The notes beneath the pieces were generated by a model. It had not been told where the DNA came from and did not search any database. It saw only the letters and a list, made by a program, of their open reading frames with translations. The translations under genes were made by a program, and so were the position numbers. Source: Escherichia coli (GTDB lineage: Bacteria > Pseudomonadota > Gammaproteobacteria > Enterobacterales > Enterobacteriaceae). Taken from it: a stretch of DNA of 64,000 nucleotides. Positions 3,636 through 41,209 of the stretch are shown here, piece after piece; within the stretch, counting starts at the first letter, position 1, and every line of letters starts with the position of its first letter. The stretch lies in NCBI RefSeq assembly GCF_001677475.2, contig NZ_CP015229.1; one strand, 5' to 3'.

Positions 3636-4412
3636 TTAGTGATTATGGAAGCTCACGCTACTTTTTTCGGCAAATGCCTGCGTCGCCTGCTGGCAATCCT
3701 GAGTGGCGGACATTAATCCAGCCAGTAACTGGTGTGGGTATTCAGCGTGTTTATTTTCCAGTGCCAGAATCAGCTGCTTAATATGCGCCAGTGCCACCGG
3801 ACCACATTTTTCCAGCTGCGCTAACTGGTTCGCCATCCAGCTTTCCACCTGTTCTTTTTCTACTACTTCATCAATTAAATTCGCCGCCTGGGCTTCATGC
3901 GCCGTCAGACGTTTACCTAGCATCAGCATCTGGCGACCGACCACTGGGCCGACCTGATTAATCACGCGTTCAATGCCCATCCAGCCAGGCACCATGCCGA
4001 GCATGACTTCCGGGTTAGAAAATTTCGCGCTGGGGCGAGCGATTCGAATATCGCAGCACAAGGCAAGTTCAATACCGCCGCCGATGGTATGACCGTTGAG
4101 ATTCGCAACCGTTAATTGCGGTAAATTGCGCAGGCGATTAAAAACGTCATTGCCGCGTTTAATCCATTTTCTGCCCATATCTAATGGCGAATAGGCCGAC
4201 CACGATTTAATATCACCGCCCGCACAAAAGAATTTATCGCCGATTGCCGTTAATTCGACTAATCGTAATGTGGTGTCGTTTTCAATTTCATTTAAATAAT
4301 GGTCGAGAGATTCAATCATCTCTTCGTTAATAGCATGACATTTCTCTTCACGGTTCAACGTCAGGCGGCAGGAAGCCGCCGCTCTGCTGAACAGAACGGG
4401 TTGGTCACTCAT
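3636..4412 (-). CDS. Enoyl-CoA hydratase/isomerase (crotonase fold), 258 aa
   Basis: ORF with crotonase-like motifs (FCAGGDI, HTIGGGIELAL). Confidence 0.75.
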   Translation of the reverse strand: MSDQPVLFSRAAASCRLTLNREEKCHAINEEMIESLDHYLNEIENDTTLRLVELTAIGDKFFCAGGDIKSWSAYSPLDMGRKWIKRGNDVFNRLRNLPQLTVANLNGHTIGGGIELALCCDIRIARPSAKFSNPEVMLGMVPGWMGIERVINQVGPVVGRQMLMLGKRLTAHEAQAANLIDEVVEKEQVESWMANQLAQLEKCGPVALAHIKQLILALENKHAEYPHQLLAGLMSATQDCQQATQAFAEKSSVSFHNH

Positions 4413-38779: not shown

Positions 38780-40132
38780 ATGGCACTTGCAATGAAAGTA
38801 ATCTCTCAAGTTGAAGCGCAGCGCAAGATTCTGGAAGAAGCAGTTTCCACTGCGCTGGAGTTGGCCTCAGGCAAATCGGACGGTGCGGAAGTTGCCGTCA
38901 GCAAGACCACCGGCATTAGCGTAAGCACGCGTTATGGTGAAGTGGAGAATGTTGAATTCAATAGCGATGGCGCGCTGGGGATCACTGTTTATCACCAGAA
39001 CCGCAAAGGTAGCGCATCGTCTACCGATTTAAGCCCGCAGGCCATTGCCCGCACCGTACAGGCGGCGCTGGATATTGCCCGTTATACCTCGCCAGATCCC
39101 TGTGCCGGCGTGGCAGACAAAGAGCTGCTGGCCTTTGACGCACCGGATCTCGACTTGTTCCACCCTGCGGAAGTTTCCCCTGATGAAGCCATTGAACTGG
39201 CGGCCCGCGCTGAACAGGCGGCATTGCAGGCGGACAAACGCATCACCAATACCGAAGGTGGCAGCTTTAACAGCCACTACGGTGTCAAAGTTTTTGGCAA
39301 CAGCCACGGCATGTTGCAGGGTTACTGCTCTACGCGTCATTCGCTCTCCAGCTGTGTAATTGCTGAAGAAAATGGCGATATGGAGCGTGATTACGCCTAC
39401 ACCATTGGTCGTGCGATGAGCGATCTGCAAACGCCAGAGTGGGTTGGGGCCGACTGTGCTCGCCGTACTTTATCGCGCCTGTCACCGCGTAAACTCTCCA
39501 CCATGAAAGCGCCGGTCATTTTTGCCAATGAAGTGGCAACCGGGCTTTTTGGGCATCTGGTGGGGGCGATAGCGGGTGGATCGGTTTACCGTAAATCTAC
39601 CTTCCTGCTGGATTCGCTGGGTAAACAAATTCTGCCGGACTGGCTGACCATTGAAGAGCATCCGCATCTGCTGAAAGGGCTGGCCTCTACGCCATTCGAC
39701 AGCGAAGGTGTGCGCACCGAGCGTCGCGATATTATTAAAGATGGCATTCTGACTCAGTGGCTGCTGACCAGCTACTCGGCGCGGAAACTGGGGCTGAAAA
39801 GCACCGGGCATGCGGGCGGTATTCACAACTGGCGGATTGCCGGACAAGGTCTAAGCTTCGAGCAGATGCTCAAAGAGATGGGCACCGGGCTGGTGGTGAC
39901 GGAATTGATGGGCCAGGGCGTGAGTGCAATTACCGGTGATTATTCCCGTGGTGCGGCGGGCTTCTGGGTAGAAAACGGCGAAATTCAGTATCCGGTTAGC
40001 GAAATCACCATCGCAGGTAATTTAAAAGATATGTGGCGCAATATTGTCACCGTCGGTAACGATATTGAAACACGCAGTAATATACAGTGTGGTTCTGTGC
40101 TGTTGCCGGAGATGAAAATCGCCGGGCAGTAA
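38780..40132 (+). CDS. pmbA: Metalloprotease PmbA (TldE)
   Basis: 450-aa ORF; synteny. Confidence 0.93.
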
Positions 40133-40310
40133 AAAACTGGCGCGACCTGCCGCGCTTAAACTAAAAAATTACACAAAATCATTCGCACTGCATCGAGACG
40201 GAAAGTGAATGAGAGCCGGGGAGCGTACTCGTAGTACGTGACTCGGGCGAATGAGCGTAGCCGTCGATGAGGTGGTGTGAAGGATGAAGTGTAAATAAAA
40301 AAGGAAGTGA

Positions 40311-40700
<390 letters not shown>

Positions 40701-40744
40701 TTCCTTATTTCCCTGTTGCCTGCACTCAGGTAACAGGGAACTTA

Positions 40745-41209
40745 TCATCGCAAATGATGCACCACCTGATTGCTGCTGCCGCGCCAGATCAGGGAAGGGT
40801 CTTTTAAATCCTGCACAAATTTGCCGTCGACCAGCACGTTAATCAAATCAACAACCTGCATTTGCGCAGCGTTGAGTTCGTCGAGTTTATACCCTGTCCA
40901 CACCCAGATGTCTTTACCCGGACACTCGGCGCGGATGCGTTGTACCAGTTTCAGAATATCCGGCACGTTTTGCGGATGCAGCGGATCGCCGCCGGAGAGG
41001 GAAATCCCCTGGCGTTTGATGCGAGTGTCATTCAGATCGTTAATGATCTGGTCTTCCATTGCTTTGGTAAATGGCTGACCGGAATTTACCCGCCAGGTGC
41101 TTTTGTTATAGCAACCGGGGCATTCATGAACACACCCGGAGACAAACAGGGTGCAGCGAGTGCCGGGGCCGTTGACGATGTCGACAGGATAGTACTGATG
41201 AAAGTTCAT
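40745..41209 (-). CDS. nrdG: Anaerobic ribonucleoside-triphosphate reductase activating protein (radical SAM)
   Basis: 154-aa ORF with a CxxxCxxC-type cysteine cluster. Confidence 0.93.
   Translation of the reverse strand: MNFHQYYPVDIVNGPGTRCTLFVSGCVHECPGCYNKSTWRVNSGQPFTKAMEDQIINDLNDTRIKRQGISLSGGDPLHPQNVPDILKLVQRIRAECPGKDIWVWTGYKLDELNAAQMQVVDLINVLVDGKFVQDLKDPSLIWRGSSNQVVHHLR

Follow-up and report, generated by a model that had tools for sequence, protein, structure and literature searches.

We identified the 128-nt palindrome at 40168-40295, between pmbA and cybC, as very probably one diverged copy of ERIC (IRU, RU-1), with the small palindrome that had drawn attention to this region as its apical stem-loop. 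ERIC is a non-autonomous MITE of about 127 bp found in Enterobacterales; it has been known since 1990-91, and the ERICs of K-12 are catalogued. The elements of E. coli and Salmonella were reportedly described by Sharples & Lloyd in 1990, by Hulton et al. in 1991 and by Wilson & Sharp in 2006. The pmbA-cybC copy, which is present in E. coli K-12 and in most E. coli, therefore belongs to a kind of sequence that has already been described, and is a diverged member of its family. We examined its length, its colinearity with the consensus, its long hairpin, its dispersal in many copies, its intergenic position and its variable presence among strains, and all are those of an ERIC.

The pmbA-cybC locus

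The window (the whole 64-kb stretch of DNA that was analysed) carries pmbA (tldE) and, in the same direction, an intact cybC encoding soluble cytochrome b562 (Table 1). The original prediction had placed its structured element between these two genes, a location borne out by the open reading frames and by the RefSeq annotation of homologous E. coli records. The spacer measures 181 nt, most of it occupied by the 128-nt palindrome, and the sequence around the finding reads ...GGAAAGTGAATGAGAGCCGGGGAGCGTACTCGTAGTACGTGACTCGGGCGAATGAGCGTAG... No feature is annotated in the pmbA-cybC spacer of the RefSeq records, so that an ERIC label is worth adding, and nothing relevant was found in the literature on pmbA with cybC or on cybC with ERIC.

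Table 1. Features of the pmbA-cybC region of the window, with the evidence for each.
Feature	Position	Strand	Basis
pmbA (tldE) CDS, upstream gene	38780..40132	+	ORF list; RefSeq annotation of homologous E. coli records
Short GC hairpin GCGCG-ACCTGC-CGCGC, right after the pmbA stop, outside the ERIC	40140..40155	.	Terminator-like site called on the minus strand
A-rich left flank AACTAAAAAA	40159..40168	+	Direct repeat with right flank AAATAAAAAA at 40293-40302
Complete element, very probably ERIC/IRU/RU-1, 128 nt, canonical strand = sense	40168..40295	+	Consensus alignment; nhmmer E=9e-40
Terminal inverted repeats TACAC (40170-40174) and GTGTA (40289-40293), TA at both ends	40170..40293	+	Sequence
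Left arm of the ERIC hairpin	40169..40222	+	Inverted repeats; MFE structure; family consensus structure
Left GAATGAG repeat, = GTGAGTGAA of the ERIC consensus; purine-rich internal-loop region	40207..40213	+	Alignments; fold
CCGGG, 5' half of the GC-rich inner stem, pairs with 40243-40247	40216..40220	+	Fold
Apical stem-loop GCGUACU-CGU-AGUACGU, contains the flagged palindrome	40223..40239	+	Fold; alignments
Right arm of the ERIC hairpin	40240..40295	+	Inverted repeats; fold; family consensus structure
CUCGG, 3' half of the GC-rich inner stem	40243..40247	+	Fold; G-U/G-C alternation among Escherichia orthologues (pair 51-75)
Right GAATGAG repeat, = GTGAGCGAA of the ERIC consensus	40249..40255	+	Alignments
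cybC Shine-Dalgarno AGGAAG, 7 nt past the ERIC end	40302..40307	+	Sequence; fold of 40120-40345; motif ATAAAAAAGGAAGTGAGCAATG
cybC (soluble cytochrome b562), intact, 128 aa, ATG at 40314	40314..40700	+	ORF list; homologous records annotated cytochrome b562

A small palindrome at the tip of a long hairpin

The original prediction described a perfect 6-bp inverted repeat with a 3-nt loop, nested between two GAATGAG direct repeats and partly complementary GC-rich arms. All of these are present: the inverted repeat consists of CGTACT (40224-40229) and AGTACG (40233-40238), the two GAATGAG repeats lie on either side of it, and the arms are seen in the fold as CCGGG paired with CUCGG. By themselves the small palindrome and the direct repeats are not beyond chance: perfect inverted repeats of 6 bp around a 3-nt loop number 22 in the 64-kb window, 13% of its 61-nt segments contain a 7-mer direct repeat, and 0.75% contain both features. 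The larger structure, which has these small repeats as its core, is far beyond chance. Nested long-range inverted repeats span 40169-40294 (40169-40188 with 40275-40294, 40186-40196 with 40264-40274, and 40179-40186 with 40247-40254), and the flagged palindrome is thus no more than the apex of a palindromic stretch about 128 nt long.

As RNA, the plus strand forms a single long hairpin with an energy of -55.6 kcal/mol; shuffled sequences average -31.0 (z=-7.4, with none of 200 as good), and the minus strand reaches only -31.7 kcal/mol (z=-2.9). The canonical strand also folded better than its complement in 13 of 14 sequences, two published reference sequences included. When the whole spacer was folded together with the start of cybC (40120-40345), the ERIC hairpin stayed an independent module and left the cybC Shine-Dalgarno outside. 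The view that the structure of the region exceeds the needs of a promoter, and the idea of a structured RNA as a plausible one, are in this respect well founded; a locus-specific regulator site or a small RNA gene upstream of cybC, the two roles suggested for it, did not stand up to the evidence given below.

Assignment to the ERIC family

For comparison we used the E. coli ERIC (RU-1) consensus of 127 nt that Delihas 2007 prints from Wilson & Sharp (2006) (PMC2759123, Table 1a), and the element aligned to the reverse complement of the printed sequence. The alignment runs end to end, with 84 of 127 positions identical (66%) and one 1-nt gap. Its score of 121 lies far above those of shuffles (44.8, sd 5.7; z=13.3), of the opposite orientation (37) and of 654 other 130-nt windows (64 at best). 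The unit length agrees as well: the 128 nt found here correspond to consensus positions 1-127, and E. coli alleles lacking the element are 127 bp shorter. An nhmmer profile built from four copies recovered canonical ERICs in Yersinia, Morganella, Citrobacter, Salmonella and Edaphovirga, including a Y. pestis copy near pmbA (E=1e-26), and detected no further ERIC copy in the 64-kb window besides the element itself. The 44-nt ERIC core, a sequence that the published consensus includes, had no match at up to three mismatches, this copy being too diverged for such a test. The core is nevertheless present in register, with several substitutions, mostly compensatory, and one extra loop base. REP/BIME was also considered and rejected on size and sequence.

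Structural conservation across the family points in the same direction. The family consensus structure is a single long hairpin of 40 pairs, 19 of which show compensatory changes, among them the inner-stem pairs (columns 48-52/76-80). The apical stem-loop corresponds to GCTTAC-ATA-AGTAAGT of the ERIC consensus, a region targeted by ERIC-PCR primers; the central palindrome is GCGTACT-CGT-AGTACGT here and GCATAC...GTATGT in Morganella. In CTTAC/GTAAG, CGTACT/AGTACG and CATAC/GTATG, compensatory changes have kept the pairing rather than the sequence.

Dispersed copies, presence and absence

When 5,426 complete E. coli genomes were searched by sensitive blastn, 40160-40300 matched a median of 3 places in each, and the ERIC consensus used as query a median of 13. 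The published estimate for K-12 is about 30 copies (PMC10969869), and blastn probably misses diverged copies such as the pmbA-cybC one. The paralogues at puuR-puuC and rhlB-gppA share 70-74% identity with it over about 126 nt and align over the full length, from TACAC...AAAATCATTC to TTGAAGGATGAAGTGTA. All paralogues that we examined are intergenic (puuR-puuC, rhlB-gppA, yeiL-psuT, ybhI-ybhJ and yeiS-preT). Six of the copies examined lie between co-directional genes; in five of these the canonical and the sense strand coincide, the exception being the ybhI-ybhJ copy, which adjoins a stop codon.

The ERIC occupies the pmbA-cybC spacer in 3,883 of the 5,426 complete E. coli genomes. In the remaining E. 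coli the spacer measures 54 nt, exactly 127 bp less, and an evenly spaced sample of E. coli contained 7 rows out of 25 of this kind. Sensitive blastn left 1,232 genomes with paralogue-level matches only and about 315 with none, so that about 28% of complete E. coli genomes are without the element and about 72% have it; cybC is still annotated as intact in those without. An O157:H7 strain and C5 are examples of carriers, STEC276 and TOK-001 of natural strains that lack the ERIC.

The two alleles were compared at the point of insertion. The ERIC-less allele reads GCGCCAAATCTTCA-TA-ATAAAAAAGG and the ERIC allele GCGCY(A)TAAACTAAAAAAT-TA[CAC...GTG]TA-AATAAAAAAGG. The former has TA at the insertion point, with an adjoining flank that differs (TCA vs AAAAAAT, plus one extra A). 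From these alignments, insertion at a TA with target duplication is plausible, but the flank match is not clean, and as the left flanks of the two alleles are mismatched a simple TA duplication is not provable. With the alleles of E. whittamii and SCPM most of the left flank aligns (CAAATCT vs CATAAACT), a 3-nt versus 7-nt difference beside the TA remaining. A simple deletion between the A-rich flanking direct repeats was rejected as the origin of the ERIC-less allele, as it does not fit the observed GCGCCAAATCTTCATAATAAAAAAGG.

A protein-guided scan of 57 cybC loci across species showed that pmbA-cybC synteny is kept in most Enterobacterales, where the two genes usually stand 50-90 nt apart with no ERIC between them. 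In all representatives of the other Escherichia species (E. albertii, E. whittamii and unnamed lineages) the ERIC has the position and the orientation that it has in E. coli, and by this comparison its entry into the spacer predates the divergence of the Escherichia species. Conservation across enterobacterial pmbA-cybC spacers, which had been proposed as a check on the structure, therefore extends to the genus Escherichia only. A much more canonical ERIC lies in the same spacer in the opposite orientation in Citrobacter sp. Res13 and MGH106 and in Salmonella enterica subsp. diarizonae; it starts from the TA next to the pmbA stop codon, on its downstream side, and scores 39-56 bits in the minus orientation and essentially nothing in the plus orientation. 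Other Citrobacter and Salmonella arizonae retain short remnants of an opposite-orientation ERIC. ERICs have thus arrived in the spacer on at least two independent occasions, as would be expected of a mobile element but not of a site peculiar to the locus.

These distributions bear directly on the proposal that the palindrome is a regulator binding site, that is, an operator for a transcription factor controlling cybC. A perfect 6-bp inverted repeat does lie upstream of this gene, and cybC expression responds to signals such as phosphate limitation in O157:H7 (PMC3978041). The palindrome is, however, the apical stem-loop of a dispersed repeat, and the same structure recurs at about 13 or more unrelated intergenic sites per genome; across the family it is the pairing and not the sequence that is conserved; the structure is missing upstream of cybC in most genera and in the 28% or so of E. 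coli described above; and the promoter scan showed no sigma-70-like site in the vicinity on which it could act. We thus consider an operator extremely improbable.

Conservation within Escherichia

Pairing was evaluated in eight distinct Escherichia orthologues. Standard pairs on the sense strand make up 99.4% of the paired cells, and 9 of the 11 variable paired columns keep sense-strand pairing via G-U wobble, while at this shallow depth no double compensatory change was seen among the eight. The columns that vary number 11 of 88 paired and 7 of 40 unpaired, proportions that are not clearly different.

Rates of divergence were compared with those of four-fold degenerate sites in the neighbouring genes. 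Between Escherichia species the ERIC has diverged by 0-10%, against 14-32% for pmbA four-fold sites, which makes it 3-15 times less diverged, with one pair identical; Fisher tests gave p values from 2e-5 to 3e-12 for the species pairs, except for MOD1-EC7003 against two E. coli strains. The adjacent cybC four-fold sites have diverged by 16-28% between Escherichia species, again more than the ERIC. Within E. coli (window versus K-12) the ERIC has diverged by 5.5%, a value not lower than that of four-fold sites (7.6%). The entire pmbA-cybC spacer is conserved in Escherichia, the ERIC and the rest alike, so that the constraint need not concern the hairpin itself.

A rival account of the element would be that of a fossil ERIC without function here, a selfish MITE tolerated between pmbA and cybC. 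Several observations speak for it. The copy is strongly diverged from the consensus (66% identity), it diverges within E. coli about as fast as four-fold sites, it is dispensable, given that many E. coli and most Enterobacterales do without it and have an intact cybC, and the Citrobacter and Salmonella ERICs in the same spacer are decaying, with internal deletions and footprints. Set against this are the divergence between species, which falls well below that of four-fold sites in pmbA (p<=2e-5 when MOD1-EC7003 against the E. coli strains is excluded) and also below that in the adjacent cybC, and the fact that most stem substitutions preserve sense-strand pairing. On balance we find a functionless fossil somewhat unlikely.

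Probable transcription of the element

A consensus promoter scan found no sigma-70-like site in or near the spacer, and a terminator scan found no plus-strand terminator between pmbA and the ERIC, terminator-like calls being confined to the minus strand. With neither a promoter-like site nor a sense-strand terminator between pmbA and cybC, the element is probably co-transcribed, as part of a pmbA-cybC read-through transcript or of a long cybC leader. Literature on cybC/tldE yielded nothing on a cybC promoter or transcription start site. An intrinsic terminator of pmbA was rejected, as no U-tract stands behind either hairpin on the sense strand, where AAAUAAAAAAGG comes after the ERIC hairpin and UUAAACUAAAAAA after the one at 40140-40155. 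The latter hairpin is kept in all Escherichia spacers, with or without the ERIC; on the plus strand it has no T-run, and the A-run before it makes it terminator-like on the minus strand only.

The same scans weigh against the suggestion that the spacer contains a small structured RNA gene of its own. A search of 39800-40800 against Rfam at a permissive E-value returned chance-level matches only (best E=0.77), namely ES173, V_AS5 and two weaker ones, each of which missed its gathering score by 25 bits or more and most by over 40, and thus no family even at E=0.1. A very stable fold and a sequence conserved within Escherichia might be expected of such a gene and are both seen here, but they are properties of the ERIC family; with no sigma-70-like promoter in the scan and neither a terminator-like site nor a U-tract after the plus-strand hairpin, we see hardly any likelihood of a free-standing small RNA gene in the pmbA-cybC spacer.

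A further alternative is that the ERIC supplies or remodels the promoter or leader of cybC. The element would have been inserted at the TA of a conserved CATAATAAAAAAGG, which is -10-like in ERIC-less alleles, and transcription would start within or just past the right ERIC end. The motif TAATAATAAAAAAGGAAGTGAGCAATG directly upstream of cybC is indeed conserved across genera, as is ATAAAAAAGGAAGTGAGCAATG at the Shine-Dalgarno, the ERIC-less allele has CATAAT at the insertion point, and other MITE families, such as Correia elements, carry promoters (PMC3184786). The promoter scan, however, found nothing in the ERIC allele, the right ERIC arm has no properly spaced -35-like hexamer, and ERICs are not reported to carry DNA motifs beyond their terminal inverted repeats (PMC2229807). 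A role as promoter appears to us quite unlikely.

Transcription from the other side was also taken into account, in which case the element would be a minus-strand terminator or insulator: on that strand the antisense ERIC hairpin precedes AUUUUUUAG and the GC hairpin (40155-40140) precedes CAGUUUUUUA, and together they would stop antisense transcription from entering pmbA. The terminator-like site called at 40155-40140 and the T6 run after the ERIC on the minus strand are in keeping with this. Against it, the antisense fold is weak (as given above), the A/U-rich base of the ERIC stem is unlike that of an intrinsic terminator, there is no known source of antisense transcription, and the convergent genes cybC and nrdG already have a strong hairpin between them, at 40709-40740. 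We regard this alternative as very improbable.

A possible role in the pmbA-cybC transcript

A cis function of the ERIC at the RNA level in the pmbA-cybC unit is, in our view, quite possible, if short of probable, and it is the reading that we favour, given the stable sense-strand hairpin, the stem changes that keep its pairing and the low divergence between Escherichia species. In a transcript of the kind proposed above, the element would form a hairpin of 128 nt that stops 7 nt short of the cybC ribosome-binding site. To our knowledge, the ERICs of Yersinia, studied by De Gregorio et al. in 2005, are the only ones with experimental functional data. That work is said to have established the RNase E mechanism for the orientation that abuts the stop codon, and to have proposed for the other orientation only an 'upstream stabiliser or other function'. 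As summarised in three later articles (PMC2229807, PMC3184786, PMC10969869, summarising De Gregorio 2005), Yersinia ERICs are co-transcribed with their flanking genes and change the relative stability of upstream versus downstream mRNA in an orientation-dependent manner. The same articles also place an RNase E site in one terminal inverted repeat of the Yersinia ERIC (PMC2229807, PMC3184786, PMC10969869). By analogy, the hairpin found here could set the mRNA stability or the processing of the segments that flank it. Its orientation is not the stop-codon-abutting one with demonstrated destabilisation, and for this reason any effect could go in either direction. The roughly 28% of E. coli and most other genera that are without the element keep an intact cybC, and any function of the ERIC must be dispensable.

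A stronger version of this proposal can be formulated, in which an old ERIC has been domesticated as a cis-acting RNA of the pmbA-cybC transcript and is under purifying selection across Escherichia, its hairpin setting the mRNA stability or translation of cybC (or pmbA). Presence or absence of the element in E. coli would then act as a heritable switch of cytochrome b562 expression. In K-12, cybC is a pseudogene and the ERIC allele shows an excess of changes, which in this version would reflect relaxed constraint. We offer this version as speculation and think it unlikely.

Comparison with known repeats

The element matches the ERICs of E. coli and Salmonella in size (128 vs 127 nt), colinearity, terminal repeats ending in TA, the long imperfect hairpin, and a central palindrome flanked by direct repeats of the GTGAG(Y)GAA type. 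It likewise shares with them a position between co-directional genes, many copies per genome and a presence that varies among strains. It differs in being among the more diverged copies, with 66% identity to the consensus.

With the Yersinia ERICs it has in common the family, the setting between genes that are probably co-transcribed, the RNA hairpin and the asymmetry of orientation. Two differences stand out. First, RNase E destabilisation in Yersinia concerns opposite-orientation copies that abut stop codons, an arrangement seen at pmbA in Citrobacter and S. diarizonae and not in the pmbA-cybC copy of E. coli. Second, the Yersinia elements are recent and numerous, whereas the Escherichia copy is old and fixed across Escherichia species.

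REP/BIME sequences are also extragenic palindromic repeats that are transcribed with their neighbours and implicated in mRNA stability. REP units are GC-rich, 20-40 bp long and often clustered (PMC3733652), in contrast to the single 128-nt unit found here, which aligns to ERIC. The Correia/NEMIS elements of Neisseria resemble it as MITEs of about 100-150 bp with terminal inverted repeats and TA ends, which are co-transcribed, form long hairpins and are processed by RNase (PMC2229807, PMC10969869). They belong, however, to an unrelated sequence family in another host, are processed by RNase III, and in some cases carry IHF sites and promoters.

For annotation, the spacer should be labelled as an ERIC repeat and not as a new regulator site or small RNA. 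The locus is of modest interest for work on MITEs in two respects: the element is far more conserved between Escherichia species than synonymous sites and yet missing in about a quarter of E. coli, and the same short spacer has been entered independently by ERICs in opposite orientations in different genera. Owing to this presence/absence polymorphism and to the opposite-orientation arrivals, the pmbA-cybC spacer offers a convenient natural test case, with the ERIC present, absent or inverted, for effects on the expression of flanking genes.

A lost cybC start codon and a divergent ERIC allele in K-12

Comparison of the window with E. coli K-12 MG1655 (locus L001 of our cross-species cybC scan) revealed that K-12 carries a 26-bp deletion (GTGAGCAATGCGTAAAAGCCTGTTAG) directly downstream of the ERIC (L001 ~3985-3990; window equivalent 40307-40332), through which cybC lost its start codon together with the initial signal-peptide codons. 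This loss accounts for the pseudogene annotation of K-12 cybC, a gene that is intact in the window. The gene has been termed cryptic in K-12 (PMC4361602).

The ERIC itself also differs between the two strains, at 7 of 128 positions (window 40169-40296 versus L001 3851-3978). Between the window copy and the alleles of other Escherichia species we counted 1 to 6 differences, fewer than the 7 separating it from K-12, the exception being E. albertii with 10. Three of the K-12 changes were found in K-12 alone among the sequences compared. These changes might reflect a relaxed constraint once cybC had turned into a pseudogene, the numbers being too small to tell.

ERIC copies and remnants in other species

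At the same pmbA-cybC spacer, two Citrobacter species and Salmonella enterica subsp. diarizonae carry ERICs in the opposite orientation, which are nearer to the consensus and begin at the TA following the pmbA stop codon; these are independent insertions. ERIC remnants were identified in the spacers of four further loci (L013, L015, L020 and L057). C. gillenii possesses a "short ERIC" with an internal deletion, and apparent ERIC footprints (TGATACTCGT...) are present in C. youngae and S. arizonae. The 191-nt spacer of Citrobacter amalonaticus S646 (L013 2313-2503) holds a brief stretch of ERIC-like sequence, evidently a remnant, and after it a long palindrome of another kind (GAGCCCGGCCATCAGGC ... 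GCCTGATGGCCTGGCTC) that was not recognized by the nhmmer profile built from four ERIC copies, and which may thus belong to another repeat family.

In E. whittamii, Morganella, Edaphovirga and two Citrobacter species, additional full or partial ERICs were found no more than a few kb downstream of cybC, illustrating the dense ERIC population of some genomes.

Positions of hairpins in the window and of ERIC copies at other cybC loci (L-numbers)
Feature	Sequence or locus	Coordinates	Location
A6 run, then hairpin	GCGCG-ACCTGC-CGCGC	40133-40155	Directly after pmbA stop codon
Hairpin, 12-bp stem, 11/12 paired	TTCCCTGTTGCC ... GGTAACAGGGAA	40709-40740	cybC-nrdG gap
Opposite-orientation ERIC	L018	2334-2457	After pmbA stop codon
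Opposite-orientation ERIC	L021	2340-2463	After pmbA stop codon
Opposite-orientation ERIC	L025	2343-2465	After pmbA stop codon
Additional ERIC	L011	4071-4166	Downstream of cybC
Additional ERIC	L044	3533-3658	Downstream of cybC
Additional ERIC	L042	3505-3614	Downstream of cybC
Additional ERIC	L038	4631-4720	Downstream of cybC
Additional ERIC	L046	4886-5003	Downstream of cybC

Hairpins and strain variation around the locus

The hairpin following pmbA is kept in both ERIC-bearing and ERIC-less alleles. It lacks a U-tract on the + strand; read on the - strand, the same segment has the form of an intrinsic terminator (GCGCGGCAGGTCGCGC CAGTTTTTTA) directed into pmbA. The second hairpin occupies the 44-bp gap between the convergent cybC and nrdG genes and looks like a bidirectional terminator. 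In some E. coli strains a RelE/ParE-RelB/DinJ toxin-antitoxin module is inserted between these two genes (window equivalent ~40700-40745), making the region ~400-700 bp longer; this was seen in E. coli records H86-H88 and H99, e.g. IAI39 (NC_011750.1).

A few genomes match the pmbA-ERIC-cybC segment only partially, namely H30 (NZ_AP027256.1), H100 (NZ_OY754853.1) and H125 (NZ_CM196106.1), which suggests local rearrangements or insertions breaking the ERIC. In H30 the match is limited to the spacer's right half, a stretch over which pmbA is annotated.

The scan also returned a contig of just 396 bp (L063, NZ_AEJF01000297.1) that bears the name Caballeronia mineralivorans PML1(12). It consists of the 3' end of E. 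coli pmbA, the ERIC and the 5' end of cybC, with an nhmmer score equal to that of K-12 and a 100% identical pmbA fragment. The contig is almost certainly E. coli contamination within a Burkholderiaceae assembly.
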